Source: Thermoplasmata archaeon
GTDB lineage: Archaea; Thermoplasmatota; Thermoplasmata; RBG-16-68-12; JAFNFQ01
NCBI GenBank assembly: GCA_041489255.1
Contig: JBGPQV010000003.1
Coordinates: 1-64,000 of the forward strand
Reading direction: 5' to 3'
Length of the DNA: 64,000 nucleotides
The position numbers and the translations under genes are program-made. Below are positions 3,623 to 53,010 of the stretch, in pieces (position 1 is the first letter of the stretch; each line of letters begins with the position of its first letter). Below the pieces are notes generated by a model, which had not been told where the DNA came from, searched no databases, and saw only the letters and a program-made list of their open reading frames with translations.

Positions 3623-3629
3623 GGTGCCT

Positions 3630-4055: not shown

Positions 4056-4057
4056 CT

Positions 4058-4900: not shown

Positions 4901-4904
4901 TTTC

Positions 4905-5351: not shown

Positions 5352-5352
5352 G

Positions 5353-19366: not shown

Positions 19367-20443
19367 ATGGATAGAGTGTCCACTGGCGTAGCAGGGTTGG
19401 ACAAGATGCTCCGGGGCGGCCTCATACCGAGGAGGCCTTATGTCATCTCGGGCGCCTCTGGGACGGGCAAGACGATCCTCGCGATGCAGTTCATCGTCGA
19501 GGGGTTGAAGCGGGGCGAGCCGTGCATGTGGGTGTCGCTCGACGAGCCGCCGAACGAACTAAAGGCAAACATGGCGACGTTCGGCTGGAACCTCGACCAC
19601 CTCAAGATTCTCGACGCCACGCCGGACATCCGGATGCACAAGAGGAAGAGCGTCATCGACGTCGGCACGACCCTCGATGTCCGCGACATGGAGGAGGTAA
19701 AGGGCATCCGGGTGAGCCAGCAGCTGAGGAGCATGGACGTCTCCATACACTCAGTCCAGAAGATGCTCAAGCAGGAGTTCTTCCAGCATCAGGAGAGGAC
19801 GAAGGAGAACTACCAGCGCATGGCAATCGATTCCTTGACCGCCCTCAAGATGTTCTCCCTTGTCGGCGTCGACAGCAGGATCTTGATACAGTCGTTCATG
19901 CGGTTCCTCTCGGAACTGGAGGCGACTTGCATGATCGTCTCGGAGCACCTGGACACTTCGGTCATAGAGACGGAGTTCTTCCTTGCGAGGGGGAAGATGA
20001 GGCTCCACAAATGGCTCGACGGGAGCTCAATCAGACGGGCGATATCAATCGAGAAGATGAGGGGTTCGGGCTTCGACGACAAGATGCGCCCGTTGACGAT
20101 TGGCCCCAACGGCGTCACCGTGGACCCGTCCGGCCGTGTCCCGTTGAACACTACCGTAGTGCATGCTCTGGGCAGCCAATTCCTCAAGACGCGGATAGCA
20201 GAACAGGTAACCGTCTCAATCGAGAAGGCGTTCGAGATGGCTGAGCAGTGCCGCCACCAGGGGCACGACATCTCTCACGTCCAGATGGACCTGACGAGAG
20301 CGATGCTCATGATTCAGATGGGGCATCTCCACGATGCGATGGAGATGGTGGAGAGGGTGCGATTGGGCATGGAGCTGCTGCTCAAGCCGAAGTCCGAGGC
20401 GCCGCTGCCGCCACCGCCGCCTGAGGAGGCCCGAGGGATTTGA
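19367..20443 (+). CDS. KaiC/RAD55-family ATPase with C-terminal helical extension
   Basis: STGVAGLDKMLRGG, GASGTGKT, IDSLT, IEKMRGS. Confidence 0.9.
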   Translation: MDRVSTGVAGLDKMLRGGLIPRRPYVISGASGTGKTILAMQFIVEGLKRGEPCMWVSLDEPPNELKANMATFGWNLDHLKILDATPDIRMHKRKSVIDVGTTLDVRDMEEVKGIRVSQQLRSMDVSIHSVQKMLKQEFFQHQERTKENYQRMAIDSLTALKMFSLVGVDSRILIQSFMRFLSELEATCMIVSEHLDTSVIETEFFLARGKMRLHKWLDGSSIRRAISIEKMRGSGFDDKMRPLTIGPNGVTVDPSGRVPLNTTVVHALGSQFLKTRIAEQVTVSIEKAFEMAEQCRHQGHDISHVQMDLTRAMLMIQMGHLHDAMEMVERVRLGMELLLKPKSEAPLPPPPPEEARGI

Positions 20444-21198
20444 TCACGAATAAGCAGAGCACGGGAATCCGCGGCCTGGACAAGATGCTCCATGGCGGTC
20501 TCGTGCCAGGGCGTGCCTACATCGTCTCCGGACCGCCGGGATCGGGCAAGACGATTCTCAGCTCGCAGTTCCTGGTCGACGGGGTAGAGGGTGGCGAAAG
20601 AGTACTCTTCGTCGCATTGGAGGAGCCGCCAAACGAACTGAAATACAACTTCAGGGTCTTCGGATGGCCCATCGACGGGATCGAGGTCCTCGACGCGAAC
20701 AGCGACATCCGCCGCTTCGAGCCGACCCCCATCCTCGAGATCAGCACCGAGGAGGAGCCTGTCAGGTTCAGCCTGATAAGGGACGAGATCCGCAAGACCC
20801 CCGACGTTGAGAGCCACGAGGTCAGCGTCCACTCGCTCCAGCAATTGCTCAAGAGCCTGTTCATCAAGCGTGGCTACAGCAGAGTCGTGATCGACTCGAT
20901 GACCGCGCTGAGATACTTCTGCATGAAGGACTTCGAGGAGAACATCTCGACGCAGAGCTTCATGCGATTCCTCGCGGAGAGCAAGGTCACCACGTTGCTC
21001 ACGGTCGAGACGACCGAGGCCATGGAGATGGCCCCGGAGGCTTTCCTCGCCAGGGGTGAGATACGTCTCTACAGAGTGAGGGACGAGTCTGGGATCAAGC
21101 GCTTCATCTCCATAGAGAAGTATAAGGGTTCGACCCACGACGAGAGCATCCGCCCGTTCGACATCACCCCCACGGGCATCGTCGTCCACGCGGGCTAG
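20440..21198 (+). CDS. KaiC/RAD55-family ATPase
   Basis: STGIRGLDKMLHGG, GPPGSGKT, LEEP, IDSMT, IEKYKGS; paralogue of the upstream gene. Confidence 0.9.
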   Translation: MITNKQSTGIRGLDKMLHGGLVPGRAYIVSGPPGSGKTILSSQFLVDGVEGGERVLFVALEEPPNELKYNFRVFGWPIDGIEVLDANSDIRRFEPTPILEISTEEEPVRFSLIRDEIRKTPDVESHEVSVHSLQQLLKSLFIKRGYSRVVIDSMTALRYFCMKDFEENISTQSFMRFLAESKVTTLLTVETTEAMEMAPEAFLARGEIRLYRVRDESGIKRFISIEKYKGSTHDESIRPFDITPTGIVVHAG

Positions 21199-23393: not shown

Positions 23394-24545
23394 ATGGGTA
23401 TGAAATCGCTTGTAAACGAGGCACTGGCTAGGCACGAGGAGTCGAGAGCTAGGGAAGAGGCAGAGGGGACGAAAGAAACGGCCCCGAAGACTGCTGAGGA
23501 CGAGGAAATCCAGAAGATCGTGGACGCACTCAATGTGTCCATAAAGATCATAGGATGTGGCGGTGCTGGTTCGAACACCATAAACCGCTGCAGCGAGGCG
23601 GGGGTAATGGGTGCGCAGCTGTGCGCCCTGAACACTGACGCCAAGCATCTCCTGTCGATTCACTCGCCCAAGAAAATACTGATCGGGAAGCGTCTGACGA
23701 AGGGGCTGGGCGCGGGCGCGCTGCCCGAGGTCGGGGAGCAGGCGGCTCACGAGAGCGAGGAGGAGATCCGGACAATCGTGAGGGACTCGCACATCGTCTT
23801 CGTCACCGCTGGAATGGGCGGCGGGACCGGAACGGGGACGGCGCAGTACGTCGCCAGGCTCGCGAAGGAGGCGGGATCTCTGGTGATGGGCGTCGTCACG
23901 ATGCCGTTCAAGTCGGAGGGCAAGATACGCATGGAGAACGCCGAGGCCGGCCTCGACAAGCTGCGCCGCTTCTGCGACACCACCATCGTCATCTACAACG
24001 ACAAGCTCCTCGAGCTCGTCCCGAGACTCCCGATCGATGCCGCTTTCAAGGTCGCCGACGAGATTCTGATGCAGTGCATCAAGGGCATGACCGAGATAAT
24101 CACCAAGCCCGGTCTGGTGAACCTGGACTACGCCGACCTCATGACCATCATGAAGGGCGGCGGCGTCGCGATGATAGGCATAGGCGAGAGCGACGAGGAC
24201 AGGGACAGGATCGATTACGCCCTCAACGAGGCTCTTGAGTCCCCGCTGTTGGGCGAGGTCGACCTGAGCCACGCCCGCGGCTGCCTCATCAGAGTGGTCG
24301 GAGGAACCGACCTCACCATATCAGAGGCAGAGAAGGCTGCGGAGCTCGTCGGAGAGAAGATCAACCCGTCAGCCAGGATCATTTGGGGCTGCTCGCTCGA
24401 GCCGGAACTCGAGAAGACGGTCCGCGTGCTCCTTGTGATAACCGGAGTGAAGAGTAAGTCCTTCCTGGGGAAGGAGACCTCCTCCGCGTCGCGCGTCGTC
24501 AGTTCGGCGCCGTCGTCGGAAGAGGATATGGATGTAGTACGCTGA
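23394..24545 (+). CDS. ftsZ: Cell division protein FtsZ
   Basis: [28 protein letters not shown]. Confidence 0.97.
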
Positions 24546-26546: not shown

Positions 26547-27998
26547 ACGCCTGGCGGGGAGAAACGTCTTTGTCCAGTTTGCGACTCTGAGATCGAGCCA
26601 GGTGAGAGGAAGTGCCATCACTGCAACACCGACCTCCGTCTTTTCGAAATAGACAAGGACAGCAATGTGGACATCGGCAAGCTCAGCGCTCAGAGCGACA
26701 AGAACATCGACGAACTGCTCGCATCAATAGCAGAAGGCAAGGACGTCAAGCCTGACATTTTCGAGGACATCAAGAACATCTCCAGGAACGGCGAGTCCGC
26801 AGCGGCGGAGGAGGAGACCGCCGAGCCGACGGAATTCGAGTGCCCCGTTTGCGGAGCCCGCGTCGAACCGGACGCCACTCAGTGCCCCGGTTGTGGAGCG
26901 CAGTTCGCGGATGAGGCGCCCGCCGAGAAGTTTGAATGTCCCCTGTGCAGCGCACAGGTCGACGCGAATGCGACGAGGTGCCCGAGCTGCGGTGTCGAGT
27001 TCGAGGAGGAAGCACAAGAGGCCCAACCTGAACCGGCACCCGCGGCCCGCGCGCCCAGTGCGGCGAGGCGAGCGGCCGAGGAGGAGGTCGAAAGGGCCCT
27101 GGAAACGGTGACGGCGAGACCACCAGCTCGCCCTGCGGGCGCGCCCGGACCCTATGTTTCGGTCACAGGCCTCAGGCAGCGGGTCGAGGCATTGGCGGCG
27201 AAGGAGTTCCCGATCGAGAGTCTGGAAGGCGTCGACAAGAAGACTCTCTACAGGGAGCTCCCGAGAATCGTCAATGAAGTCAAGCCGTTACTCCTGTCCG
27301 CCAAGAAGATCGGAGTGAGCATAGAAGACAGCAAGCATCTCATCAACGATGCCATCGCGTTCGGAAAGAAAAAGGAGATGGAAAAGGCAGTGCGGCTGGT
27401 GAGTCAAGCGAAAGCTTCCTTGGAAAAGGCGTTCACCGTCGAGCTGGCGAACCAGATTGAATCGCTCATGGCGGAGGTCGAGAAGGCGAAGGCGTCGGGA
27501 AGCACAGTGGATCCAATAGAGACCCAGATTGCCGAGGCAGTCACATACCTCGAGGCCGCCAGATACAGCGATGTCAGCAACAGGATAGCCGAGGCGAAGA
27601 ACGAGTTCAGCGCGAGGGCAGGCGGATACTACAGGGCGAAGGAGGCGATACAGGCGGCGCAAGACCTCATCGAGGACAGCATCTTGGTGGGGGTCGAGGC
27701 GGGCGAGGCGAATCGGGCGATAGCGCGTGCCAACGATGCCTTGCAGAGGAGGAAGTGGGAGCAGTCGGAGCTCGAGGCTGGGAGGGCGAGGGACATCATC
27801 TTGAAGCAGCTCCCCAAGCACCTTGACAAGGAGATGAAGAAGGCGAGGGACATGCTCCTCGAGATGAAGGTGGGAGGCGGCGACCTCACAAAGCCGATCG
27901 GAATCCTCAAGCAGGCCAGTATACACTTAAAGCGCGAGGAGTACGCGGACGCCGTGCACTATGTGAAACTCTTCAGGGAAGAAGTCAAGTCGCCTTAG
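26547..27998 (+). CDS. Multi zinc-ribbon plus helical/coiled-coil protein
   Basis: Three double-CxxC ribbons; the first (CPVC..CHHC, from 26571) lies upstream of the predicted GTG 26667; the best in-frame start is ACG 26547 behind GAGGTG. Confidence 0.75.
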   Translation, partial: TPGGEKRLCPVCDSEIEPGERKCHHCNTDLRLFEIDKDSNVDIGKLSAQSDKNIDELLASIAEGKDVKPDIFEDIKNISRNGESAAAEEETAEPTEFECPVCGARVEPDATQCPGCGAQFADEAPAEKFECPLCSAQVDANATRCPSCGVEFEEEAQEAQPEPAPAARAPSAARRAAEEEVERALETVTARPPARPAGAPGPYVSVTGLRQRVEALAAKEFPIESLEGVDKKTLYRELPRIVNEVKPLLLSAKKIGVSIEDSKHLINDAIAFGKKKEMEKAVRLVSQAKASLEKAFTVELANQIESLMAEVEKAKASGSTVDPIETQIAEAVTYLEAARYSDVSNRIAEAKNEFSARAGGYYRAKEAIQAAQDLIEDSILVGVEAGEANRAIARANDALQRRKWEQSELEAGRARDIILKQLPKHLDKEMKKARDMLLEMKVGGGDLTKPIGILKQASIHLKREEYADAVHYVKLFREEVKSP

Positions 27999-30079
27999 AA
28001 CGAGACGGCTTCCATCTCCCTCTCGAGTATCTTCACTTCCTGCTCCTTCATCGTCTTCGGGCTAATCGAGAGCAGGAGGACGAACTGGCTCTCGGAGACA
28101 TGGTCAACCAGGCGCCTCAGGAACCTTAGGACTGCATCGAAGCTGTTGTTGCTCACGAGGTACTCGACGCCGTCGAGCATGACCGCGCCCTTGCCGCCCA
28201 CGCGCATGAACTCCTCCACCATGTAAATAAGCCTCTCCAGGGTGGGTGGCATCGTCTCCTCGCTCGTGCTTTCCCTGTCAGTCAGCCAGATGATCCGCTC
28301 GCTCCTGAGACCGTACCTCTCCCTCACCCGCTTCGGATTTGTCCGGGTCACCACCATCCCCGCACCCTTGCCCTCCGCGGCCTTCGCGAAGAGCCGGAAG
28401 ACGTTGACGGCGCGCTCTTCCTCGACGAGGTAGCTCCTTCCGGGCTTGAGTTCCCTCATGATCTGTTCGAGGCTGGGGCGGCCCTTGTGCTCCTCGCGTT
28501 CAGGGGCGAGGTCTTTGAGGACCTCCTTCGCGAGCGCGAGGCTCGCCGTCTGCCCCATCAGCGACGAGAATGCGACGACTCGGTTCAGCGCCCCGCCGAG
28601 CTCCCTGATGTTGCTTTCGATCACGCGGGCGATATGCTCGAGCACCTGCGCATCAACTTTCACGCCTGAGTCCTTCACCCGGCGCTTGAGGATAGCCAAT
28701 CTGGTCTCGAAGTCGGGCGACTGGATGTCAGCGATGAGACCGGATTCGAACCTGGACACCAAGCGGTCCTCCAGGTCAGGTATCTCCTTCGGCGGTCTGT
28801 CGCTCGTGAGAGCGACCTGCTTCCCCGCGTTGTAGAGCGCGTTGAAGGTGTGGAACAACTCCTCCTGGACGTCGACCTTTCCGGAGAGGAAGTGCACGTC
28901 GTCGATGAGCAGCATGTCCAGATTCCTGAACTTCTCGCGGAAGGCGGCGAGCTTGTTGTTCTGGGAAGCTTCCTTGAATTCATTCGCAAAGCCTTCGATG
29001 GATGTGAACAGGATCCTCGCGTTGCTGTTGCTGTCCTTGACGCGGTTGCCGATCGCGTTCAGGAGGTGGGTCTTCCCGAGGCCGGAACCGCTCGTGATGA
29101 ACAATGGATTGTAGGCCTCGTGGGGGTTCTTGGCCACCGCCAGGGCGGCCGCGTTGGCGAACCTGTTGCTGGGGCCGACCACGAACGAATCGAATGTGTA
29201 CTGAGAGACCAGGTTGGTCGTCTCGTCCCTGGTCATCAAAGCCTTTGACTCGATCGCCTCGCGGACCTTCACCTCCGTGATGCCCTCCAGCGGCTTGCCT
29301 TCGGCGACCTTGTGCTTCACGATCATGTCGAAGACTTGCCGGGCGCGCTCGCTGATTTCTTTCTCCCGCTTCACTTCGAGGCTCTTGGTAGCCTCCTCCT
29401 TGCTTCTCTTCTCGGCTCTCGCCTGCAACTCACCGATTTCAGCCTCGATGGCGGCATGCTTCCTCGGGTCCCTCATTTTCTCTTTGAGCGCGGCCACCTC
29501 ACTCTCGAATCCAAAGAGGTCCTGCGAGCCCAGAATGTCTTTGAGCACCTCGACCTTCCTGACCTCCCCCTCGAATTCCTCGAAGACCTTGCGCGCCTCC
29601 TGCGGGGGCATCGTCACGGCAGGTTCAATCGAGGACACGTCGTAGCCGGCGCTCCGCCACACCTCAAACTTTTGCTCAAGGATGCGTCTCTCGGAGACAA
29701 GCGACGAGGTCATCGATTCGGAGCTTTTCTTGCCGCGCTCTATCTCCGCATCGCTGAATTCCTCCAAGAGCGCGTTGACGTCCACGCGGGCATGGACCTG
29801 GATCACGCATAGCGGATTCCCGGTATCATCCCATATCCGCCGCAGCGCCGCTTTGCCTGTGCTCTTCGCCGTGCCCTGGACATGCACCGCGACCTCCGGG
29901 TTGCCCGTCTTCACGATAATGTAGCCCTTGGAGATCGGCTCTTTTTCCGAGACAAGGGTCTGCACGTAGCCGGAGAAGGAGTATTTCCTGAGATCAAGTA
30001 GGAGCCCTTTGAGCGAGTCGCTCCCGCCCTGCAAAGTGCGGATTGTCTTGCCCTCTGGAAATGCTGGCTCTTCGGGCAA
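27995..30079 (-). CDS. DnaA-type AAA+ domain protein with N-terminal DUF2226-like and C-terminal DUF835-like domains; no DnaA DNA-binding domain IV
   Basis: YTFDSFVVGPSNRFA, YNPLFI.SGSGLGKTHL, LLIDDVHF, QEELFHTFN, RLVSRFESGL, NIRELGGAL; tail TRTNP..IWLT..LDGVEYLVSNNSF..LRFL. Confidence 0.88.
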   Translation of the reverse strand: MPEEPAFPEGKTIRTLQGGSDSLKGLLLDLRKYSFSGYVQTLVSEKEPISKGYIIVKTGNPEVAVHVQGTAKSTGKAALRRIWDDTGNPLCVIQVHARVDVNALLEEFSDAEIERGKKSSESMTSSLVSERRILEQKFEVWRSAGYDVSSIEPAVTMPPQEARKVFEEFEGEVRKVEVLKDILGSQDLFGFESEVAALKEKMRDPRKHAAIEAEIGELQARAEKRSKEEATKSLEVKREKEISERARQVFDMIVKHKVAEGKPLEGITEVKVREAIESKALMTRDETTNLVSQYTFDSFVVGPSNRFANAAALAVAKNPHEAYNPLFITSGSGLGKTHLLNAIGNRVKDSNSNARILFTSIEGFANEFKEASQNNKLAAFREKFRNLDMLLIDDVHFLSGKVDVQEELFHTFNALYNAGKQVALTSDRPPKEIPDLEDRLVSRFESGLIADIQSPDFETRLAILKRRVKDSGVKVDAQVLEHIARVIESNIRELGGALNRVVAFSSLMGQTASLALAKEVLKDLAPEREEHKGRPSLEQIMRELKPGRSYLVEEERAVNVFRLFAKAAEGKGAGMVVTRTNPKRVRERYGLRSERIIWLTDRESTSEETMPPTLERLIYMVEEFMRVGGKGAVMLDGVEYLVSNNSFDAVLRFLRRLVDHVSESQFVLLLSISPKTMKEQEVKILEREMEAVSF

Positions 30080-30310: not shown

Positions 30311-31021
30311 ATGATGGCGGCGGATGGGCGGGCGGTCGGCGGGAAGATGGACGAAGCGGGTGACGGCTCGGCTCAACAGAAGAAGGGCAGGGGCATCGTT
30401 GGCCTGAACTCCGACGACTTCGTCGAGTGGGTCACGCGGAAGATAGAGAGGCCGATCAAGAAGGGCATCGCCGACCCGATAATCCGCACAGGTCTCGTGC
30501 AGAGCTTCCTGAACTGGGCGAAGAGGAACAGCACGTGGCCTCTGCACTGGGGGATCATGTGCTGCGCGATCGAGATGGCGGCGACGAGCGACCCCAGGTA
30601 TGACGTGGAGAGACTGGGCGTCATCTACAGATCCTCCCCCAGACAGGTCGATGTCCTATTGCTGAACGGTCCGATAAGCCACAAGCTGAGGCCCATGGCC
30701 AGGAGACTGTATGAGCAGATCCCCGACCCTAAGTGGGTCATCGCCATGGGGGAGTGCACCATCTGCGGCGGACCTTACTACGACTCATACGCAGTCGTGA
30801 AGGGCGCATACACCGTGATGCCCGTCGACATATTCATCCCGGGTTGCCCGGTCCGCCCGGAGGCGCTAATGTACGGGTTCCTCAAGCTCAACCAGAAGAT
30901 CAAAGCCGAGAAGACAGGATACGTGACAACTAGGAAAGGGCGGAAGGTGTCATCACGCGAGGGCAGGATGGCAGATTTCACGGGGAAATACACTCATGAA
31001 GTCCCAGAAGACAGAAGGTAA
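30311..31021 (+). CDS. nuoB: Complex I-like subunit B (NuoB/FpoB)
   Basis: WGIMCCAIEM, SPRQVD, MGECTICGG, IPGCPVRPE. Confidence 0.9.
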   Translation: MMAADGRAVGGKMDEAGDGSAQQKKGRGIVGLNSDDFVEWVTRKIERPIKKGIADPIIRTGLVQSFLNWAKRNSTWPLHWGIMCCAIEMAATSDPRYDVERLGVIYRSSPRQVDVLLLNGPISHKLRPMARRLYEQIPDPKWVIAMGECTICGGPYYDSYAVVKGAYTVMPVDIFIPGCPVRPEALMYGFLKLNQKIKAEKTGYVTTRKGRKVSSREGRMADFTGKYTHEVPEDRR

Positions 31022-31025
31022 AGGC

Positions 31026-31871
31026 ATGGCGGCCAAAAAGCGGCGGCGCGGCGGGGTATTCCGGCCGATCTTGGTCACGCTGAAGCAGGCGGTGCAGACC
31101 GCCCCCGTAATCCACAAGATCATACCGGGCGGCAGGAAGCCCGTCACCTTCCTCTATCCATACGAGAAGTTGGAGAGTTACCAATCATACAGAGGACAGC
31201 ACATCATCGATTGGTTCAAGTGCATAGGCTGCGAACTCTGCGCCAAGGTCTGCCCCAACGAGTGCATCTACTTCGAATTCATCAAGGTGGAGAAGGACTC
31301 GCCGTACACTCTCCCCCGCAGAAACAAGACGGATACGATGAAGGGGCAGGTCAGGAGGCCTGCGGTCGACGTGGGCCACTGTCTATTCTGCGGCGACTGC
31401 TCGGAATTCTGCCCGACGGACGCATGGATGTTCACTCAGAACTTCGAACTCGCGGACTACACGCGCGAGGATCTCTTCTACCATGCGGACGAGCTGAAGA
31501 AGCCGGACGAACTGAGCGACAGGAAGCAGGTCCTCCTCAACCGCCAAGGCGATGAGCCGATACTCGACGTGGACGTGTGCATCGGCTGCGCGAGGTGCGA
31601 CCGCGAGTGCCCGACAGGCTGCATCTCGATGACTCAAGGGCCGAACCTGAGGAAGGGCAAGCCCATCCAGATACCTGAGTTCAACTACACTGTGTGCATC
31701 GGCTGCCAGCAGTGCTGCGACGTCTGCCCCGTCGACTGCCTTTACATGCAGGAGATACCCTACAAATCGATGGATCAGTTCTACAACATCACCTTCCCGG
31801 GGGAAGCGAAGCCGCTCGAGGAGTGGGTGGCAAGGAAATCGCCACGGTACCAGATGCCTCCGAAGCGGTGA
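31026..31871 (+). CDS. nuoI: NuoI/FpoI-like subunit with an extra 2x[4Fe-4S] ferredoxin domain
   Basis: VTFLYPYE..YRGQH, four CxxCxxCxxxCP motifs, FELADYTREDL. Confidence 0.8.
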   Translation: MAAKKRRRGGVFRPILVTLKQAVQTAPVIHKIIPGGRKPVTFLYPYEKLESYQSYRGQHIIDWFKCIGCELCAKVCPNECIYFEFIKVEKDSPYTLPRRNKTDTMKGQVRRPAVDVGHCLFCGDCSEFCPTDAWMFTQNFELADYTREDLFYHADELKKPDELSDRKQVLLNRQGDEPILDVDVCIGCARCDRECPTGCISMTQGPNLRKGKPIQIPEFNYTVCIGCQQCCDVCPVDCLYMQEIPYKSMDQFYNITFPGEAKPLEEWVARKSPRYQMPPKR

Positions 31872-31940
31872 ATCGCCCGCCGATTCCGTCTGCTTTTTAT
31901 GCGCCTCCTGCCTTACACATCGTGAGAACCGGTGAATCAA

Positions 31941-32243
31941 ATGGTCACCAAGGATGAAGTAATCGCCACGCTGAAGAAGTGCTATGATCCCGAGATCCCG
32001 ATCAACATAGTCGACCTCGGCCTCGTCTACGATGTGAGCATCGAAGGCGAAAAGGTCGGCATTAAGATGACCCTTACGGCCCCTGGATGTCCCGCCTCGG
32101 GCTACATCTCCCAGGATGTCAAGAAGAAGCTGGAGAGCATGCCTGGTGTGAAGAAGGCGGACGTCACGGTCGTCTGGGACCCGCCTTGGTCTCCGGACTT
32201 GATGTCCGAGACCGCCAAGAAGCAATTCGGCTGGGGCTTGTAG
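31941..32243 (+). CDS. DUF59/MIP18 (SufT-like) Fe-S assembly protein
   Basis: DPEIPINIVDLGLVY, MTLTAPGCP, VWDPPW. Confidence 0.93.
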   Translation: MVTKDEVIATLKKCYDPEIPINIVDLGLVYDVSIEGEKVGIKMTLTAPGCPASGYISQDVKKKLESMPGVKKADVTVVWDPPWSPDLMSETAKKQFGWGL

Positions 32244-32311
32244 ACCCTCGGAAACGTTCAATAAGGATTCACGCAATCTCCCGGCGAACCCCTGAGCGAG
32301 ACTGCGGGGAG

Positions 32312-32857
32312 ATGGTCAGGGTCATGAGCGCGCGAGTCAGGAAGACGGATAACCCGATTGCACGAGTGCTGCAGGCGGCGAAGGAAGGCGTCGTGTTCTT
32401 CGAAAGAGCGCACACCGCCGCCAATGACCCCCGCGTTCGTGAGGTTTTTGGGAAGCTCCTGAACATCAAGAAGGAGAGCCTGAGGAGCCTCGAGGAGAAT
32501 CTCAGGGAGGCGCGCCTCCTTCTGCCGGAAATGGAGGGGCAACCCCCGCGCATCTACCCGCTCGAGGAACTTCAGAAGAAGGAATGCTACGTGTGCGGCT
32601 ACAGCACCGATCTCGAGATGATCCCCGAATCGTGTCCCAGGTGCGGTGCATCGCGATACGCTTTCGAGAAGGAGATAACGGTGAGGAAAGCCTGGGAGCT
32701 GGCGGAATCCGGGGCTCGCATCACCCTCGAGATACTGAGCGAGGCTGAAAGGGAAGTGGAAGCGAAGGCCAAGCCGGTCTTGGCAAAGCAGATCCAGCTG
32801 GAGCAGCGCGTCCTCAACGAGACGCGCAAGGAGCTGGAAAGCCACAGAGAGAGCTAG
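32312..32857 (+). CDS. Rubrerythrin-like helical protein with an internal rubredoxin-type metal site
   Basis: Ferritin-like helices flanking CYVCGY..CPRCGA; ExxH ligands not evident. Confidence 0.6.
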   Translation: MVRVMSARVRKTDNPIARVLQAAKEGVVFFERAHTAANDPRVREVFGKLLNIKKESLRSLEENLREARLLLPEMEGQPPRIYPLEELQKKECYVCGYSTDLEMIPESCPRCGASRYAFEKEITVRKAWELAESGARITLEILSEAEREVEAKAKPVLAKQIQLEQRVLNETRKELESHRES

Positions 32858-32877
32858 CACGGAGGAAGGAGTACTCG

Positions 32878-34032
32878 ATGGATATCCCGCCGATAGAAGA
32901 CGAACTCCGCGCGTGCACGATGTGCGGCTACTGCGTCCCGACATGCCCGCCATACCGGGAGATACTCTGGGAGGACGCGGCACCGAGGGGCAAAGTCTTC
33001 CACATGCGCCAGTACGACGGGAGGTCGATCCTCGACTGGCTGATGCGCAGGCGGCCCGAGATCGACGAGGAGTTCGCGAAGGCCGTCTATGAGTGCACGT
33101 CCTGCGGCATGTGCGAGGAAGTGTGCATGGTGGACATTCCGTTCACCCGCCTCTGGGACCGGGTCAAGAGATGGATAGTCGACCTCGATGTCGCTCCCAT
33201 GCCCGAGCACCGCCATCTGCTCGCGAACGTCTTGAAGGAACACAACATCCTCGGCGAGCCACACGACAAGCGCGGCGACTGGATTAGCGCGGATGTCAAG
33301 CAGGCGGAGTTCCCGGAGATCGTCTTCTGGGTTGGCTGCATGCAGAGCTACAAGAAGCAGAATGTGGCTGCCGCCGCCATCAGGATACTCAACGCCGCTG
33401 GGGTGAAGTACAGAGTCCTCGGCCCGTCAGAATGGTGCAGCGGCGCTCCCCTCATCAGGGTCGGCTACTCGAAGGTCGTCGAGGAACATCTCATGCCCCA
33501 CAACATCACGGCGGTGGCGGGGACGGGGGCGAAGGCGATGGTCACTACCTGCGCCGAGTGCTACAGGACTTTCGTGCGCGACTACAGAGAGCTCGGCGGC
33601 GTGCCGCCATTCGCCGTCTATCATTTCACGGAATATGTCGAGAAGCTCGTCAAGGAGAAGAGGCTGAAGTTCACCAAGAACGTGCCGAAGAAGGTGGCGT
33701 ACCATGACCCTTGTCACCTTGGACGGCATTGCAGCTGTTACGACCCGCCGAGGAGGGCCATGGGGTTCGTGGCGGGGTTGCAGCAGGTCGAAATCAATCC
33801 GAATAGGAACGAGGCACTGTGTTCGGGTGGGGGCGGCGGGTTCCCGGACGCGTTTCCCAATCAGGCCGACGGGATCACCGCAAAGAGGCTTGAGCAGTTC
33901 GAGAAGACTGGGGCCGAGCTGCTGGTGACCGCCTGCCCGTTCGCCCAAGAGCGGTTCAGCGGCGTCGCGAACAAGCAGGGCAAGAGCCTCGAAGTCAAGG
34001 ACATCGTCGAACTCCTCGCAGACGCTCTCTGA
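32878..34032 (+). CDS. Fe-S oxidoreductase, HdrD/GlpC-like (2x[4Fe-4S] plus two CCG-type domains)
   Basis: CTMCGYCVPTCP, CTSCGMCEEVC, WVGC, TTCAEC, YHDPCHLGR. Confidence 0.88.
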   Translation: MDIPPIEDELRACTMCGYCVPTCPPYREILWEDAAPRGKVFHMRQYDGRSILDWLMRRRPEIDEEFAKAVYECTSCGMCEEVCMVDIPFTRLWDRVKRWIVDLDVAPMPEHRHLLANVLKEHNILGEPHDKRGDWISADVKQAEFPEIVFWVGCMQSYKKQNVAAAAIRILNAAGVKYRVLGPSEWCSGAPLIRVGYSKVVEEHLMPHNITAVAGTGAKAMVTTCAECYRTFVRDYRELGGVPPFAVYHFTEYVEKLVKEKRLKFTKNVPKKVAYHDPCHLGRHCSCYDPPRRAMGFVAGLQQVEINPNRNEALCSGGGGGFPDAFPNQADGITAKRLEQFEKTGAELLVTACPFAQERFSGVANKQGKSLEVKDIVELLADAL

Positions 34033-34072
34033 ATGATGGGGACCTCGTTTTCGCCAGAGTTCGCAACATATT

Positions 34073-34087
34073 TATAACGCGGTTATA
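34073..34087. promoter_or_regulatory. Palindrome TATAAC-GCG-GTTATA overlapping the suf TATA box
   Basis: Perfect 6-3-6 inverted repeat overlapping TTTATAA, ~65 nt before sufC. Confidence 0.45.
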
Positions 34088-34151
34088 TAGGATAGGATGC
34101 CTGAGTGGAATCCGGTCCCAGAGCGACCCCTACGGCCAAGGAGATTCAGAG

Positions 34152-34913
34152 ATGAAGCGAACCCTTCAGATAGTGGACTTGCACGCTGGTCGCGATGGCA
34201 AGGAGATACTGAAAGGCATCAACCTCGTGATCAACCAGGGCGAGGTGCACGCGATAATGGGCCCGAACGGCTCCGGCAAGAGCACCCTCTCGAACGTGGT
34301 CATGGGCAACCCCAAGTACCAGATCATGTCGGGCGACGTCAGACTGGACGGCGAGAGCATCGCGAAGCTGGCGCCGAACAAGAGGGCGCACAAGGGCCTC
34401 TTCCTGGGGATGCAGTACCCTGTCGAGGTCTCGGGTGTGAAGCTCGGCTCGTTCATGAAGGCGGCCTACAACCAGGTCCACGGGCCAGACGCCCTCGACG
34501 TCGCGGGGTTCATGGAGATCGTGGAGGAGAACACGAAGCTGCTCAACATGGACAGCACCTTCGCGGGGCGCTATGTGAACGAGGGGTTCAGCGGCGGGGA
34601 GAAGAAGAAGGCTGAGATCCTCCAGATGCTCGTCCTCAAGCCCGCGTTCGCCATACTGGACGAGACAGACAGCGGGCTGGACATCGATGCGCTCAAGACG
34701 GTGGCGCGGGCGATCGACGCGTACCGCGGACCGGACGTCGGCATACTCCTGATCACGCACTACCAGCGGCTGCTGAGGTACATCAAGCCGGATTTCGTGC
34801 ACGTGCTCATGGGCGGGAAGATAGTGCTCACTGGCGGTGGCGACCTCGCGGAGAAGCTCGAGGAGCTCGGCTACGGCTGGCTCAAAGACGAGAAGTATGC
34901 GGGGGCGACATAG
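34152..34913 (+). CDS. sufC: Fe-S cluster assembly ATPase SufC
   Basis: [35 protein letters not shown]. Confidence 0.96.
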
Positions 34914-36315
34914 GACGACCGCGAAGGAGATCGTGGACGAGGACTACAGCGCCTACGACTTCAAGGACGACATCGAGTACCTGTACAAGACGAAGAAGGG
35001 GCTGCGCGAGAGCATTGTGGATGAAATAAGCAAGCTCAAGGGCGAGCCGGAGTGGATGAGAAGATTCAGGCACAGGTCGTTCGAGCACTTCGTGAAGAGG
35101 CCTCTTCCGACATGGGGCGGGGACCTGAGCGCCCTGGACTTCGAGAACATCACTTACTACGCGAAGCCGGTCGAGAGGGTCGGCAAGAGCTGGGAGGATG
35201 TCCCCGAGGCGATCAAGAAGACGTTCGACCGGCTTGGCATCCCCGAGGCCGAGAGGAAGTTCCTGGCGGGGGTCGGGGCGCAGTACGAGTCCGAGGTGGT
35301 CTACCACAGCCTCAGGAAGGAGCTGGAGGAGAAGGGCGTCATCTTCATGGGCACGGACTCCGCCCTCAAGGAATACCCCGAGATCTTCAGGAAGCACTTC
35401 GGCACTATCGTCCCGCCTGAGGACAACAAGTTCGCGGCCCTGAACAGCGCGGTCTGGTCAGGCGGCTCGTTCGTCTATATCCCCGAGGGCGTTGTCGTGG
35501 ATCAACCTCTCCAGGCGTATTTCAGGATAAACGCGGAGAATATCGGGCAGTTCGAGCGCACTCTGATCATCGCCGAGCCGCACAGCAGGGTCCACTACAT
35601 TGAGGGGTGCACCGCGCCTGTGTATGCATCCGCGTCCCTCCATGCCGCCGTCGTCGAGGTCATCGCGAAGGAGGGCGCGCACATCAGGTACACCACCCTG
35701 CAGAACTGGTCGAAGGATGTGTACAACCTGGTGACGAAGAGGGCGCACGCGCACAAGGACGCGACCGTGGAGTGGGTCGATGCGAACACGGGAAGCAAGT
35801 TGACGATGAAGTATCCGAGCGTGTACCTCATGGGCCCGGGCGCGAGGACGGACGTGCTGTCAGTCACCTTTGCGGGCAGAGGGCAGCATCAGGACGCGGG
35901 CGCGAAGGCGATCCACCTGGCCCCTCACACGCAGAGCAGGATAGTCTCCAAGTCGGTCAGCAAGGACGGGGGGCGCACGACGTACAGGGGGCATCTCAGG
36001 GTGGCGCGCGGCGCGAGGAACGTCGTGGCCAGCGTCAGGTGCGACGCTCTCATGCTGGATGCACAAAGCAGGTCGGACACTTATCCATACATCGAGATCG
36101 ATGAGGATGATGCTACGGTCACTCACGAGGCCACGGTGGGGAGGATAGGGGACGAGCAGATGTTCTACCTGATGAGCAGGGGCCTGACCGAGAACGAGGC
36201 GGTCAACATGATTGTCCTCGGTTTCCTGGAGATGTTCACGAAGGAGCTGCCGATGGAGTACGCCGTGGAGTTCAACCGGCTCATAAGGCTGGAGATGGAG
36301 GGCTCGGTGGGATAG
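34897..36315 (+). CDS. sufB: Fe-S cluster assembly protein SufB
   Basis: [38 protein letters not shown]; start ATG 34897 or ACG 34915. Confidence 0.95.
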
Positions 36316-36348
36316 ACCGGTTCTGTCCCCGGAAGGGAGTAAGACGAG

Positions 36349-37656
36349 ATGGCTGATTTCGACCTGGGGTTCGCAAACGAAGAGACGGTGAGGGAACTCT
36401 CCTCGAGCCGGAAAGAACCCGCATGGTTCCTCGCAGACCGCCTCGTGGCGCTCGCCAACTTCAAGGCGCTGCGCGTCGAGGAGCACCAGCTCTTCACGAA
36501 ATACACGGACATCAGCAGGGCGAGAGTCGGCGGGACGGATCCATACATCCAGCCCACGGGTCCTGCCAAGAACTCGGAAATGGATTTGGCGGGAGTCTCT
36601 GGGGTCTATATTCAGGAAGAGGACTCGCTGGAGACGCTGTGGTTGGATCCGGAGTTGGAGAAGAAAGGGGTAGTGTTCGAGACCCTTCAGAACGCTGTCT
36701 CCCGCCATCAGCAGCAACTGAGGACGCTCACGTTCGACCACGCCAGCCTGCCTCAGAGGGACAAGTTCGCGCAGATGACGAAGGCGCTATGCATGGCCGG
36801 CATCGTGCTGCACATTCCAGACAACGTCAGCGTCAGCAAGCCGATCCTGATCCGATGGTCGGTTGGGCGGGAGAATGCGGCTCTCCTGACAAGGACCGTG
36901 GTGTCTCTCGGGAACAATTCGAGCGCGGTGGTTGTCGAGGAGATTGAACCCGGCAAAGCCGCCGGCGGAGAGCGCATGGCGCTGTTTGGCGGGACCGCGG
37001 AGGTCATGCTCGGCGAGGGCTCGGTCCTGAGATACAATGGAGTGGAGAACGTCGGCGGCGGTGTTGCGACGTTCCTCAATCGCCAGGCGTCTGTCGGAGC
37101 GGGCTCGGAAATCCAATGGGCATTCGGCTATGTTGGCGGAGAGATGACCAGGTCGCATATCGACAACTTCCTCAGCGGCAGGGGAGCGACGGTGAGAGAG
37201 GTCCAAGTCCTGTATGGTGGCAAATCGCAATTCTTCGACATCTTCTCCCACACATGCCACGTCGCCGAGGACACGGTGAGCGACCTCCTATCCAAGGGCG
37301 TGCTTCAGGATCAGTCAAAGGCCTATGTCAAGGGGCTGATCACCATCGAGAAGGGCGGGAAGGGCTCCGATTCCTACCTTGGCGAATTCGGGATGGTCCT
37401 GAGTCGGGATTCGAGGTTCGTGTCGATTCCCAGCCTGGAGATAGAGAACCACGCGGTGAGGCGGGCCAAGCACGCTTCGTCTGTCGCACAGATAGACGAG
37501 AACCAGATCTTTTATCTTACCTCGAGGGGGATCGAGGAGAGCGAGGCGAGGAAGCTCATCGTCATGGGCTTCTTGGACCCCGTCGTGGCCAGAATCCCGC
37601 TCGAATCGGTCGCGGACCGCCTGCGCGGCCTGTTCGAATCGAAATGGAGGGCGTAG
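36349..37656 (+). CDS. sufD: Fe-S cluster assembly protein SufD
   Basis: SufBD beta-helix; SIPSLEI..AKHASSV..QIFYLTSRGI. Confidence 0.88.
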   Translation: MADFDLGFANEETVRELSSSRKEPAWFLADRLVALANFKALRVEEHQLFTKYTDISRARVGGTDPYIQPTGPAKNSEMDLAGVSGVYIQEEDSLETLWLDPELEKKGVVFETLQNAVSRHQQQLRTLTFDHASLPQRDKFAQMTKALCMAGIVLHIPDNVSVSKPILIRWSVGRENAALLTRTVVSLGNNSSAVVVEEIEPGKAAGGERMALFGGTAEVMLGEGSVLRYNGVENVGGGVATFLNRQASVGAGSEIQWAFGYVGGEMTRSHIDNFLSGRGATVREVQVLYGGKSQFFDIFSHTCHVAEDTVSDLLSKGVLQDQSKAYVKGLITIEKGGKGSDSYLGEFGMVLSRDSRFVSIPSLEIENHAVRRAKHASSVAQIDENQIFYLTSRGIEESEARKLIVMGFLDPVVARIPLESVADRLRGLFESKWRA

Positions 37657-37659
37657 GCC

Positions 37660-37731
37660 ATGGTCAGAATCATGAACGCATCCTGCAAACTCGAAGCCTT
37701 TATCAATCAAGCGACTCTGAGAGAGGAGTGA
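37660..37731 (+). pseudogene. 23-codon stub between sufD and sufS, possible remnant of a deleted gene
   Basis: GGAGG SD then ATG (MVRIMNASCKLE..); TATA-like TTTATCAAT inside. Confidence 0.25.
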
Positions 37732-37735
37732 GACG

Positions 37736-38980
37736 ATGGAGCGGACGAAACCGAGCCTCGACGTCGCGAAGATCAAGAAGGATTTCCCCATCATGGAGAG
37801 GAAGATCCACGGCAAGCCGCTGTGCTACCTCGACAGCGCTGCGACATCGCAGAAGCCGAGGCAGGTGATCGACGCGGTCAGCGAGTTCTATAGCAACTAC
37901 AACGCGAACGTCCACAGGGCGATATACGAGCTGGGCGAGGACGCGACGAGAGGGTACGAAGGTGCGAGGGAGAAGATCGCGCACTTCATCAATGCGAGGT
38001 CTTCGAGCGAGATTGTCTTCACGAGAGGCACGACGGAATCGATCAACATCGTCGCATATGGCTGGGGGATGAAGGGGAAACTCGGGAAGGGCGACGAGAT
38101 AGTCTCGACGGTGATGGAGCACCACTCGAACCACATCCCGTGGTTCTTCGTGCAGGACTACAAAGGCGTGAAGCTGTCCTGGATCGACATAGACGATGAG
38201 GGCTACCTGAAGATGGAGGACCTCGACCGCCTCGTCACGGAGAGGACGAAGATGGTGGCGGTCACGCAATGCTCGAACGTCCTCGGCACGATCAACCCCA
38301 TCAAGGAGATCGCGAAGAAGGCGCACGAGGTCAACGCGCTCTGCCTTGTCGACGCCGCGCAATCGGTTCCTCACTTCCCCGTAGATATGCAGAACCTAGA
38401 CTGCGACCTGCTTGCGTTCAGCGGGCACAAGATGCTGGGGCCCACGGGTATTGGAGTGCTCTACGGGAAGGAGAAGGTCCTGGAGGAGATGGAGCCGATG
38501 CTTGGCGGGGGCGAGATGATACGCGAGGTCCACCTCGGGCGGGCGACATGGAACGATGTGCCCTGGAAGTTCGAGGGTGGGACCCCGGATCCCGCGGGCG
38601 CCGTGGGACTTGGCGCTGCCATAGACTACCTCAGCTCGCTCGGCATGCAGAACGTGAGACAGCACGAGATCGAGCTCAATGCCTATGGCCTCGAGATGCT
38701 CGGTAAGATCAAGGGAATCAGCATCCTGGGCCCGATGGACCCGAAGAAGCGAGGCGGGCTGATTGCCTTCACCATCCCCGAAGCTCATCCGCACGACATC
38801 GCCGCCATACTCGACGCGGAGGGCATCGCAATCAGGTCCGGCCACAACTGCGCGCAACCACTGATGGAAAGGTGCGGCATCCCCGCCACCGCCAGGGCGT
38901 CGTTCTATGTCTACAACTCGCCCGAGGACATCGACCGCCTCGTCAAGGGGCTGAAGAAGGTGCAGGAGGTCTTCGCGTAG
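37736..38980 (+). CDS. sufS: Cysteine desulfurase SufS
   Basis: YLDSAATSQKP, EHHSN, FSGHKMLGPTG, RSGHNCAQP. Confidence 0.96.
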   Translation: MERTKPSLDVAKIKKDFPIMERKIHGKPLCYLDSAATSQKPRQVIDAVSEFYSNYNANVHRAIYELGEDATRGYEGAREKIAHFINARSSSEIVFTRGTTESINIVAYGWGMKGKLGKGDEIVSTVMEHHSNHIPWFFVQDYKGVKLSWIDIDDEGYLKMEDLDRLVTERTKMVAVTQCSNVLGTINPIKEIAKKAHEVNALCLVDAAQSVPHFPVDMQNLDCDLLAFSGHKMLGPTGIGVLYGKEKVLEEMEPMLGGGEMIREVHLGRATWNDVPWKFEGGTPDPAGAVGLGAAIDYLSSLGMQNVRQHEIELNAYGLEMLGKIKGISILGPMDPKKRGGLIAFTIPEAHPHDIAAILDAEGIAIRSGHNCAQPLMERCGIPATARASFYVYNSPEDIDRLVKGLKKVQEVFA

Positions 38981-39382
38981 ATGGCCTACGAGATGTACCA
39001 GGAGCAGATACTTGACCACTACAAGCACCCCCGCAACCGCGGCGAGATGCCGGACGCCGACCTCCAGGCCCGCGATTACAACCCGCTCTGCGGCGACGAC
39101 CTGACTATCTACCTCAAGACCGACGAGAAGGGGACGATCACCGATGTGAAGTTCACGGGACAGGGGTGCGCCATAAGCCAGTCATCGGCCTCGATGCTCA
39201 CTATGATGCTCAAGGGCAAGAACATCTCGGAGGCGAAAGGCATAGACCCTGACAGGATCGTGAAGATGCTCGGCATCCCGCTGAGCGCTGTCAGGCTGAA
39301 ATGCGCCCTCCTCTCCCTCCAGGTGTTGAAGAAAGCGCTGTTCAGCAAAGAACTGTCTCAGGCGGAAGCGATGAAAGAATAG
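38981..39382 (+). CDS. sufU: SufU/IscU-type sulfur transfer/scaffold protein
   Basis: ILDHYKHPRN, NPLCGD, GCAISQ, RLKCALL. Confidence 0.93.
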   Translation: MAYEMYQEQILDHYKHPRNRGEMPDADLQARDYNPLCGDDLTIYLKTDEKGTITDVKFTGQGCAISQSSASMLTMMLKGKNISEAKGIDPDRIVKMLGIPLSAVRLKCALLSLQVLKKALFSKELSQAEAMKE

Positions 39383-39394: not shown

Positions 39395-40231
39395 TCACGC
39401 GGTTGCGGCGATCTCGGCCAGCCACGCCGCACGCCTTTTCTTGTTTGCCTCGACTTCTTCCGCCGGCTTGAAGTCCTTCTCGACATCGGCCAGCAGTTCG
39501 ACGACCTTCATCAGGCTCTCCTTGCTCGGCGCGCGCACGTCGACGTTGGCGATCTCGAACTGCCTCTTGACCACCGGCATCCCCGCATCGACGCTGCCCA
39601 TCTGCGCGCAGAAGTCCGTCATTATCCTATCCGCAACGGCAATCAGGATGTCGACGGGTTCCTGAGGCACGGTCGGCAGAGCGACCTTCGGGGCGGTCTT
39701 CCCGACTCCCGCCACGATGTCCTGACCGAGCTTCACGAATGCCTCTTCGACGTGCTCTCCCGTCCTCGCGCTGCTCAGGAAGCCCTGGGCCTCGTAGCGC
39801 TGGGTGAGGTATCCCAGAAGCTCGTGCGCCGACACCTTGTCTGCGACCAAGTCGATCTTGTTGCCCGCGAACACGACAGGTATCTTCCCCACCAGCCTCC
39901 ACAGCATCGGCACCCAGTATTCCTCGAGCGACCGTCTCGTCTCGTCCCTCGTGAGGTCATAGACCATGAGAGCGCCCCTGGCCCCCTTGAGGGCCGTCTC
40001 CTGCACGCCTGCGTAGCCTCTCTGGCCGAGCACATCCCAGATCTGCATCACGATCTCCACCGGGACTCCATCATGCTTGACCGTTAGGTCCTTCTTGCTC
40101 ACCTTCGTCCCGACCGTCGTGATGTAGTCGTCGGAGAACTGGTCGACGACGAAACGGCGTATAAGCGATGTCTTCCCAACCGCCCCGTCGCCGAGAAGGA
40201 GGACCTTGGCCTTCAGCAGCTCAGGCGTCAT
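39395..40231 (-). CDS. Rab/Ras-like small GTPase with C-terminal helical domain
   Basis: G1 GDGAVGKT, G2 YITTVG, G3 WDVLGQ, G4 NKID, G5 SAR. Confidence 0.9.
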   Translation of the reverse strand: MTPELLKAKVLLLGDGAVGKTSLIRRFVVDQFSDDYITTVGTKVSKKDLTVKHDGVPVEIVMQIWDVLGQRGYAGVQETALKGARGALMVYDLTRDETRRSLEEYWVPMLWRLVGKIPVVFAGNKIDLVADKVSAHELLGYLTQRYEAQGFLSSARTGEHVEEAFVKLGQDIVAGVGKTAPKVALPTVPQEPVDILIAVADRIMTDFCAQMGSVDAGMPVVKRQFEIANVDVRAPSKESLMKVVELLADVEKDFKPAEEVEANKKRRAAWLAEIAATA

Positions 40232-40351
40232 TATCACTTCTCATTTTAGTATCGGGAGGATGCCTATAACCGTTGCCCTGTGAATATCAGTTGGGAGATA
40301 TGTGTCCTCCGTGCGAATGCTGCCCCGTCACAAAGCAATATCAGAGGATTG

Positions 40352-43566: not shown

Positions 43567-43654
43567 AGCGCCCGCGCCTATGAGGGCGGTGAAGATAAAG
43601 GTTTTCGGGGCCGGTTCGCTCCCTTCGCCACGCGAAATGTTAAAGAGTCCCGCA

Positions 43655-46768: not shown

Positions 46769-46792
46769 GCCGATTCGGTTTGTGCCGCCAGC

Positions 46793-47932: not shown

Positions 47933-48015
47933 CGAATCCAGGAGAGCGATTCACGATGAATAAAGCGAAAAGAGCATCTAGCGATTGCGTCTACGATGAT
48001 ACCGGGTCGAACCTC

Positions 48016-49071: not shown

Positions 49072-49099
49072 GCAGGAGCGAGCCAGGCCGCCCCGCTCC

Positions 49100-52180: not shown

Positions 52181-52420
52181 GCGGATGTCTACCTGTCGAA
52201 TCCCTATTTAGCAGTTTCACACGCAGGGCTATGCACGGACCCGGATGGTCGATTGAGCGGAGTGGGTGGTGGATATGATCTTCATCCGGACGCTGGTCGG
52301 AAGAATCTTGCATCATGCGAATGGAATAATCGCATTACGCGAAGGCGACGAGGGCCAATCGGAGGCCGTTGGGATCGAGGAATCCTCCATCGGTGCGCAT
52401 CCCACTCCATACAGGGGTCC

Positions 52421-52921: not shown

Positions 52922-53010
52922 TCCAATCCGCATTCGTGCGCGACAACGCTCGATATTCTCGGCAATCCTTTTAAGTAGCCCTCGATGGCATCGGGGCTCA
53001 GGAAGATGAG

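Follow-up and report, generated by a model that had tools for sequence, protein, structure and literature searches.

We analysed 64,000 nucleotides (nt) of an uncultured Thermoplasmata archaeon (contig JBGPQV010000003.1); this whole stretch is called the window, and positions refer to it. The gene studied here occupies positions 27995-30079 on the minus strand as one open frame, stop included, and encodes a 694-amino-acid (aa) protein. In this protein, the ATPase core of the bacterial initiator DnaA is joined to a DUF835 domain. An initial annotation, made from the letters of the DNA alone, had described this fusion of DnaA domain III and DUF835, and the observation is confirmed here. In textbook accounts, DnaA is the bacterial initiator and Orc1/Cdc6 the archaeal one. 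We found that an archaeal order with Orc1/Cdc6 of its own carries, in nearly every genome and usually once, a DnaA motor with 50-57% identity to bacterial DnaA, and that the protein has shed exactly those parts that make DnaA an initiator. On balance, we lean slightly towards a gene product that works within a KaiC-type network as a self-assembling, ATP-switched adaptor and not as an origin opener.

The DnaA-type AAA+ core was well preserved. The motifs GSGLGKT (residues 331-337), LLIDD (390-394), RLVSRF (439-444) and NIREL (490-494), listed earlier as signs of a well-conserved DnaA domain III, were all present in the translation, and Pfam Bac_DnaA (PF00308) matched residues 292-450 (E 5.4e-64, 215.7 bits). 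A phmmer search against PDB sequences aligned residues 272-529 with B. subtilis DnaA (8btg_A, 446 residues) over its positions 95-350 (E 5e-83). The alignment to the B. subtilis DnaA domain III construct 8bv3 (residues 9-242) was gap-free. In Foldseek, the core matched 8bv3_A with a template modelling (TM) score of 0.95, a root-mean-square deviation of 1.2 Å and 57% identity, and matched T. maritima DnaA (2z4r) with a TM score of 0.96, whereas Hda structures were far weaker matches. Identity of the core to bacterial DnaAs was in the range of 50-57%. Walker A K336/T337, Walker B D393/D394, sensor I D427/R428 and sensor II R492 were found in 40/40 full-length homologues, and box VII R439 and the arginine finger R443 in 38/40. 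R264 of B. subtilis DnaA is described as the arginine finger required for oligomerisation (bioRxiv 10.1101/2022.03.18.484894). In our alignment, R264 corresponds to R443. The AAA+ core, the lid and the nucleotide-binding and arginine-finger residues are therefore common to this protein and to bacterial DnaA domain III (8bv3/8btg; T. maritima 2z4r; A. aeolicus 3r8f).

The NCBIfam DnaA model TIGR00362 matched at profile positions 42-353 of 437 with 347.7 bits, barely above its cut-off of 343.9. This probably explains why some homologues are named 'chromosomal replication initiator protein DnaA' in databases, a label that is misleading for these archaeal proteins. Other homologues are named 'DnaA/Hda family protein' or 'DUF835 domain-containing protein', which bears out the earlier expectation that similar proteins already sit in Thermoplasmatota annotations.

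The DNA-binding parts of DnaA were missing. Neither Bac_DnaA_C nor DnaA_N matched the 694-aa protein in Pfam at E <= 1, and the whole genome (96.5% complete) contained one Bac_DnaA match and zero Bac_DnaA_C matches. The initial annotation had named the presence of Bac_DnaA and the absence of Bac_DnaA_C as a check, and this is how the scan came out; the DnaA_N result likewise agrees with its statement that the N-terminus lacks DnaA domain I. The TIGR00362 match ended at profile position 353/437, so the similarity stops at the start of domain IV. A DUF835 domain stands there instead (PF05763, residues 561-689, E 4.9e-30, 104.5 bits, cut-off 33.1), and TIGR00362, the 8btg_A alignment and Pfam together upheld the earlier claim of such a replacement. 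Since only a 21-residue linker (526-546) separates the lid from DUF835, there is no space for a domain IV of ~95 aa, and a hidden domain IV is excluded.

Residues that contact single-stranded DNA (ssDNA) were also changed. In B. subtilis DnaA, these residues are I190, K222 and T225 (bioRxiv 10.1101/2022.03.18.484894). Their equivalents in the 694-aa protein are K369, K401 and V404 by alignment. Among 75 bacterial DnaAs, I, K and T were found at the three positions in 74, 75 and 69 sequences, respectively. Among the 21 rows of the clade that contains the window protein (the window clade), I was found in 1, K/R in 17 and T in 0, with V, I or L in place of T. The other archaeal DnaA-core architectures (22 rows) had a hydrophobic residue in 21, K in 16 and T in 19. 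Judged from these residues, the window clade has specifically given up the DnaA-trio-type grip on ssDNA and has kept the ATP switch and the oligomerisation finger. Compared with bacterial DnaA, the protein lacks domains I, II and IV, two of the three ssDNA-contact residues are swapped, the core is flanked by an archaeal N-domain and DUF835, and the host is an archaeon with Orc1/Cdc6. The 64-kb window had no exact DnaA box; one-mismatch sites numbered 12, with 6.2 expected, and were scattered without forming a cluster. The loss of ssDNA residues, the presence of Orc1/Cdc6 and the lack of a DnaA-box cluster in the window support the earlier view that the protein is not an initiator.

The domain order is an N-terminal domain, a charged helical region, the DnaA-type core and DUF835 (Table 1). 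The TTG start matched the Met of close homologues in the alignment, and the local GC content of the gene matched that of the window. The full-length AlphaFold2 model, built from a 40-row alignment, had a mean predicted local distance difference test score (pLDDT) of 85 and a predicted TM score of 0.44, with a disordered stretch at residues 116-127. In this model, alpha/beta domains spanned residues 11-107 and 547-693, the helical region 126-277, and the AAA+ core with its lid about 290-520. Mean column identity was 0.61 in the AAA+ core, 0.60 in DUF835, 0.51 in the N-domain, 0.33 in the helical region and 0.22 in the linker; the helical region is the least conserved structured part of the protein.

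The gene is widespread. More than 120 clusters among the homologue matches listed had the same PF00308 and PF05763 domains at 45-98% identity and full-length coverage, and all named homologues came from metagenome-assembled genomes of Thermoplasmata, Thermoplasmatota or Methanobacteriota archaea. Within the order of the window, 75/79 genomes and 10/10 genera carried the gene (E <= 1e-60), nearly always in single copy. All 24 order genomes that were at least 90% complete had it, and the four matchless genomes were 53-78% complete. An assembly chimera, which the initial annotation had raised against its own reading, is ruled out by the >120 same-architecture clusters and the 75/79 order genomes; the fusion is genuine and common. 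Among 301 phylum genomes sampled evenly, 64 matched at E <= 1e-20, with matches to DUF835 alone included, and, counted from the rows listed, the DnaA core was spanned in 42. Several large families belonging to this class each had at most one match, which indicates a core gene of particular lineages and not a class-wide one.

Other DnaA-core proteins of the phylum have the same DnaA core and often the same N-domain, and like the 694-aa protein they have no domain IV (Bac_DnaA_C in 0/15 such proteins from other phylum genomes). These 15 proteins comprised six with X-DnaA-DUF835, one with HEAT-DnaA-DUF835-zinc ribbon, three with X-DnaA-double zinc ribbon and five in which Pfam recognised no other domain (four at 390-530 aa and one at 821 aa). 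In genomes G150, G094 and G129, the protein is split, and neighbouring genes encode the DnaA core and DUF835. The N-domain-X-DnaA-double zinc ribbon form of 1250-1420 aa, the short 390-530-aa form and the split form were seen in other classes (loci L016, L021-L030, L118-L121). Unlike the window protein, these other forms largely keep the I190- and T225-type residues (21 and 19 of 22), and many have zinc ribbons instead of DUF835. Those with retained residues may still bind ssDNA. All five checked genomes of other lineages with DnaA-core forms also contained Cdc6_C.

A quick maximum-likelihood tree was built from 43 archaeal and 75 bacterial cores. In it, the window family formed a supported clade of 21 rows (95 in the Shimodaira-Hasegawa-like approximate likelihood ratio test, SH-aLRT), and the remaining archaeal forms fell near or among bacteria without resolution. 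A tree constrained to one archaeal clade was not rejected and had the higher score (log-likelihood +19.8, approximately unbiased test p-AU 0.85), so a single ancient acquisition of the DnaA core by archaea is compatible with the data. The bacterial rows were the best-scoring matches of a pattern scan, a biased sample from which no donor can be named, and the quick tree did not resolve a bacterial donor lineage.

The N-domain, also modelled on its own (pLDDT 86.5), belongs to a family that recurs in many proteins. Foldseek against the PDB gave no match at E <= 0.001, and the best Z of VIA-align wide was 5.8, which is inside the noise range stated for the tool. The N-domain profile collected 410 representative clusters (E <= 0.001); the domain was almost always N-terminal, in proteins of 91-1420 aa, and at times in tandem. 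Among 30 sampled N-domain proteins, 15 had Bac_DnaA, 3 had DUF835 without DnaA and 1 ended in a zinc ribbon. Two of the 30 exceeded the Pfam cut-offs for DUF2226 and/or DUF4388 (PF14332, named PatA_N). The window protein itself matched DUF2226 with E 0.016 and 15.2 bits, below the cut-off of 22, and 4/12 family members matched it (best E 4.2e-5). Atlas scores of 0.87 and 0.84 for the comparison with DUF2226/DUF4388 serve as leads only. The label 'DUF2226-like' given earlier to the N-terminus thus holds through transitive homology, while the protein's own match is sub-threshold. In one other locus, the gene directly downstream of a DnaA-zinc-ribbon gene (L023:674-991, minus strand) begins with an N-domain of this type, so the domain is also found in a separate adjoining gene.

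One survey gives DUF835 the label 'iKaiC', for a KaiC-like ATPase domain that has been inactivated, and counts it among the output domains of response regulators in Methanomicrobia and Thermoplasmata (PMC5847659). The P-loop G....GK[ST] was found in 0/24 DUF835 sequences. An hhalign comparison of DUF835 with the genome's KaiC-like proteins was co-linear (probability 34.5%, E 4e-4), with the P-loop position deleted and LDGxEYL opposite the KaiC Walker B strand. The DUF835 profile found only FlaH (4yds, E 0.022) among PDB sequences. The initial annotation had called this domain an inactive KaiC type; the domain and its missing P-loop (24/24) were verified, and the kinship with KaiC received modest backing from hhalign and FlaH. 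As in archaeal iKaiC signalling proteins such as REC-DUF835, where REC denotes a receiver domain, DUF835 is C-terminal here and lacks a P-loop, but a DnaA AAA+ core stands in place of the receiver or PAS domain of those response regulators (PMC5847659). The host genome is rich in KaiC-like genes and has seven DUF835 domains in total, of which two adjoin KaiC-like genes and one lies within a 930-aa protein. In a quick tree, the DnaA-linked DUF835 domains, fused or next-door, clustered together (17 rows, SH-aLRT 85). Another DUF835 domain is C-terminal in a 1385-aa protein (G000:C4, L123:4865-9019, minus strand) that contains isoleucine-tRNA ligase (IleRS; TIGR00392, 943 bits) and a helix-hairpin-helix. 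Frames of ~1350-1450 aa in eight other genomes also end in DUF835, so the IleRS-DUF835 fusion is probably conserved.

The gene next to the DnaA-core/DUF835 gene encodes a zinc-ribbon protein (Table 1) and is convergent to it with a 4-bp overlap. Its ribbon cysteines were invariant and its helical C-domain was conserved. For the helical domain, Atlas gave only unnamed Thermoplasmatota clusters, an EzrA score of 0.79 was at chance level, and NCBIfam gave no match. Synteny in the order was examined at 18 loci, 17 besides the window, with flanks of about 8 kb. The zinc-ribbon gene was adjacent and convergent in 5/5 named archaeal loci and in genome G230, and in 17/18 order-level loci. The sole exception was genome G378, where the DnaA-like match stops at residue 410. 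A KaiC-like gene stood just past the zinc-ribbon gene in 11/18 order loci, and two further loci had one on the opposite side (13/18 in total). The adjacency and the DnaA-core/zinc-ribbon fusions make the zinc-ribbon protein the best partner candidate. A complex prediction of residues 1-535 with this neighbour scored 0.02 against a mark of 0.32, which counts neither way. The window also contains ftsZ (23394-24545) and two KaiC genes (19367-21198), as previously pointed out, although this neighbourhood was conserved within the genus only (1/17 other order loci). Conserved linkage to ftsZ was rejected, since among the 17 other order loci only the same-genus locus L129 had it, plus the split-form locus L119. 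The synteny comparison proposed in the initial annotation instead gave the zinc-ribbon gene and a different KaiC-like gene as the conserved neighbours, not ftsZ or the KaiC genes of the window.

The host genome has two Orc1/Cdc6 genes, in line with the earlier remark that archaea initiate replication with Orc1/Cdc6, and the conserved Orc1/Cdc6 type was found in 77/79 order genomes. Replacement of Orc1/Cdc6 by the DnaA-core protein is excluded by these counts and by Cdc6_C in the 5/5 other-lineage genomes. We found that Orc1/Cdc6 is itself followed by a stand-alone DUF835 gene (Table 1). This tandem was present in 42/43 loci, namely 30/30 best-scoring loci and 12/13 from the remaining genera, so that each of the order's 10 genera was covered. 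The exception was a contig ending 139 bp past the Orc1/Cdc6 match. In some Orc1/Cdc6 loci, a second DUF835 gene came after the first.

Table 1. Positions of the DnaA-core/DUF835 gene, its parts and associated genes (window positions except in the last row).
Feature	Position	Strand	Evidence or remark
Whole gene, 694 aa	27995..30079	-	N-domain / helical region / DnaA-type AAA+ / DUF835; stop codon 27995-27997, TTG start at 30079
N-terminal alpha/beta domain, residues 8-107	29759..30058	-	AlphaFold2 pLDDT about 90; DUF2226/DUF4388 (PatA_N)-related family of its own
Charged helical region, residues 126-285, long helix 205-260	29225..29704	-	AlphaFold2 secondary structure; 41% D/E/K/R
DnaA domain III, AAA+ core and lid, residues 290-525	28505..29212	-	Pfam, NCBIfam, PDB alignment, Foldseek
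Short variable linker, residues 526-546, at DnaA domain IV position	28442..28504	-	pLDDT <50 at 526-533
DUF835 ('iKaiC') domain, residues 547-694, without P-loop	27998..28441	-	Pfam E 4.9e-30
Zinc-ribbon neighbour, 443 aa, two zinc ribbons (CPxC..CPxCG, twice) and C-terminal helical domain	26667..27998	+	Pfam Zn_Ribbon_1/DZR
Orc1/Cdc6 and stand-alone 205-aa DUF835	G000:C1:251207-253095 (L122:5174-7096)	-	DUF835 30 bp downstream, same strand

In the adaptor that we favour, the DnaA-type core would bind ATP, and its copies would stack head to tail through the arginine finger as in DnaA. The DUF2226/DUF4388-like N-domain and DUF835 would be protein-docking modules that link the nucleotide state of the core to partners. 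The likeliest partners would be the convergent double-zinc-ribbon/helical protein and the KaiC-like ATPase found near the pair in most genera. Direct origin recognition, the helicase-loading domain I and DnaA-type stretching of ssDNA would have been lost. The architecture, residue conservation, loss of DNA contacts, near-universal single-copy presence in the order and gene neighbourhood were observed directly; ATP-dependent oligomerisation, KaiC-type docking and the controlled cellular process are what we infer, and coupling to the cell cycle or replication is one possibility for that process. The interpretation in the initial annotation, a signalling or cell-cycle scaffold that does not initiate replication, thus stands in part, with the scaffold role still conjectural. 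The adaptor is favoured by the recurrence of the N-domain with DnaA cores (15/30) and with DUF835 alone (3/30), by the equal conservation of AAA+ and DUF835 (0.61, 0.60) and by the existence of split DnaA/DUF835 forms. Several observations weigh against it. A basic residue is kept at the K222 position in 30/40 homologues, which leaves room for some contact with the DNA backbone, and the zinc ribbons of the partner could supply DNA binding in trans. The relationship of DUF835 to KaiC is modestly supported. The orthologue of the KaiC-like neighbour (81% identity) is on a different contig, C18, in the window's own genome. Since convergent genes are not co-transcribed, the link to the zinc-ribbon partner comes from conserved adjacency and fusions. 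The Orc1/Cdc6-DUF835 tandem points towards replication and away from generic signalling.

This tandem is the strongest ground for another explanation, in which the protein regulates Orc1/Cdc6-dependent initiation, for instance in the manner of Hda or as a timing module, by touching the Orc1/Cdc6 and DUF835 pair through its own DUF835 or AAA+ domain (DUF835-DUF835 or AAA+-AAA+). Hda (HdaA), the regulatory inactivator of DnaA, is a DnaA-family AAA+ protein that lacks domain IV and whose role is regulatory, not that of an initiator. It is established that DnaA and Orc1/Cdc6 are members of one AAA+ group, the initiator clade, which is consistent with such control, as are the same-strand tandem in 42/43 loci of 10 genera, the single-copy, near-universal presence of the DnaA-core gene in the order, and ftsZ close by in the window's genus and at one split-form locus. 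The DUF835 domain, however, is promiscuous in the genome, where it occurs in the IleRS fusion, the 930-aa protein and stand-alone forms. DnaA-linked and Orc1-linked DUF835 domains fell into separate tree groups, which indicates a shared module class and not a specific pairing, and the DnaA-fused copy was 32% identical to the Orc1-linked copy versus 38% to the IleRS-fused copy. The DnaA-core gene is not near orc1: neither orc1 gene shares its contig here, and in the single-contig genome G378 it lies 310 kb from orc1. The likeness to Hda, missing domain IV in both, is a functional analogy. The core is much closer to DnaA (phmmer E 5e-83 versus 3e-07 for Hda), the Hda model TIGR03420 reached 97.6 bits, below its cut-off of 194.8, and the protein has extra N- and C-terminal domains. 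We found neither a PIP-box nor an Hda-type clamp motif in 40 homologues, using the PIP-box pattern and QL[SPDA]L[PF], which we take to be the patterns of these motifs. We regard a replication-control factor as rather unlikely, though the tandem keeps it in view. A wider version would have a bacterial initiator ATPase captured once by an ancestor inside the phylum and domesticated into a DUF835-based control circuit for chromosome replication, with the nucleotide state of a DnaA-type oligomer gating initiation by Orc1/Cdc6. In such a circuit, the DnaA-core/DUF835 protein and the Orc1/Cdc6 and DUF835 operon would talk via DUF835 modules and KaiC-like ATPases. If true, archaea would have an equivalent of bacterial DnaA-ATP/Hda timing made with parts from both domains of life, but we consider this unlikely and put it forward as speculation.

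A true second initiator or origin melter would oligomerise on ssDNA and stretch it through the core, while the zinc-ribbon partner recognised DNA in trans. The intact AAA+ core, gap-free against B. subtilis DnaA domain III, the K/R at the K222 position in 30/40 homologues, the conserved double zinc ribbon of the partner and the TIGR00362 score just over the cut-off (347.7 versus 343.9) would fit such an activity. We judge it improbable: the I190 and T225 equivalents were kept in 1/21 and 0/21 of the window clade versus 74/75 and 69/75 bacterial DnaAs, domains I and IV are missing, Orc1/Cdc6 is present in 77/79 order genomes, and the window has 0 exact DnaA boxes and 12 scattered one-mismatch sites versus 6.2 expected. 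It is highly improbable that the gene is a mobile-element, defence-type or decaying gene, either an IstB/DnaC-like helper or a recent bacterial import without host function. IstB_IS21 did score above its Pfam cut-off (33.7 versus 24.1 bits), and the core is 50-56% identical to bacterial DnaAs. Bac_DnaA scored far higher at 215.7 bits, however, and the NCBIfam IS21 helper NF038214 reached 52.8 against a cut-off of 200, so an IS21-type/IstB helper was rejected. Across 10 genera, the gene occurs once and its synteny is conserved, every domain is under constraint, the local GC equals that of the window, and one archaeal clade (p-AU 0.85) fits an old acquisition. No patchy distribution, flanking transposase or integrase gene or pseudogenisation in close relatives was seen.

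No paper describing the DnaA-DUF835 combination was found in the literature searched, which excluded the primary description of iKaiC, where it might be mentioned. That description is reportedly by Makarova, Galperin and Koonin (2017). The DnaA-core/DUF835 adaptor would be a natural separation-of-function variant and could reveal how the DnaA ATP switch works when uncoupled from origin DNA. It also offers a handle on an unstudied DUF835/KaiC-like network that in these genomes touches replication (Orc1/Cdc6), translation (IleRS) and the DnaA-core protein.

Other genes of the window were also recorded. Divergent from the DnaA-core/DUF835 gene, positions 30311-39379 encode NuoB-like (Oxidored_q6), poly-ferredoxin, Fe-S assembly, rubrerythrin-like and CCG-domain (HdrD-like) proteins, and a SufC/SufB/SufD-cysteine desulfurase-NifU operon follows this gene cluster. 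A Ras/Roc-family small GTPase of 280 aa lies at 39395-40237. Near the start of the window, an AbiEi antitoxin-like gene (938-1609) and an AbiEii nucleotidyltransferase toxin-like gene (1606-2349) form a pair at 938-2349, and a signalling cluster at 2825-8145 encodes two Roadblock/LC7 proteins, a receiver-V4R protein and a 930-aa multi-PAS histidine kinase. Large proteins of surface type are encoded at 43580-56012: a CARDB protein of 1062 aa, a Kelch beta-propeller of 380 aa, a DUF7948, SBBP and CARDB protein of 1026 aa and a protein with PKD repeats of 822 aa. At 56000-64000, the GC content was 52-54% versus about 60% elsewhere, and a 1716-aa open reading frame (58804-63954, minus strand) together with three of 181-231 aa had no Pfam match at E <= 1e-5. 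This region may be foreign or fast-evolving.

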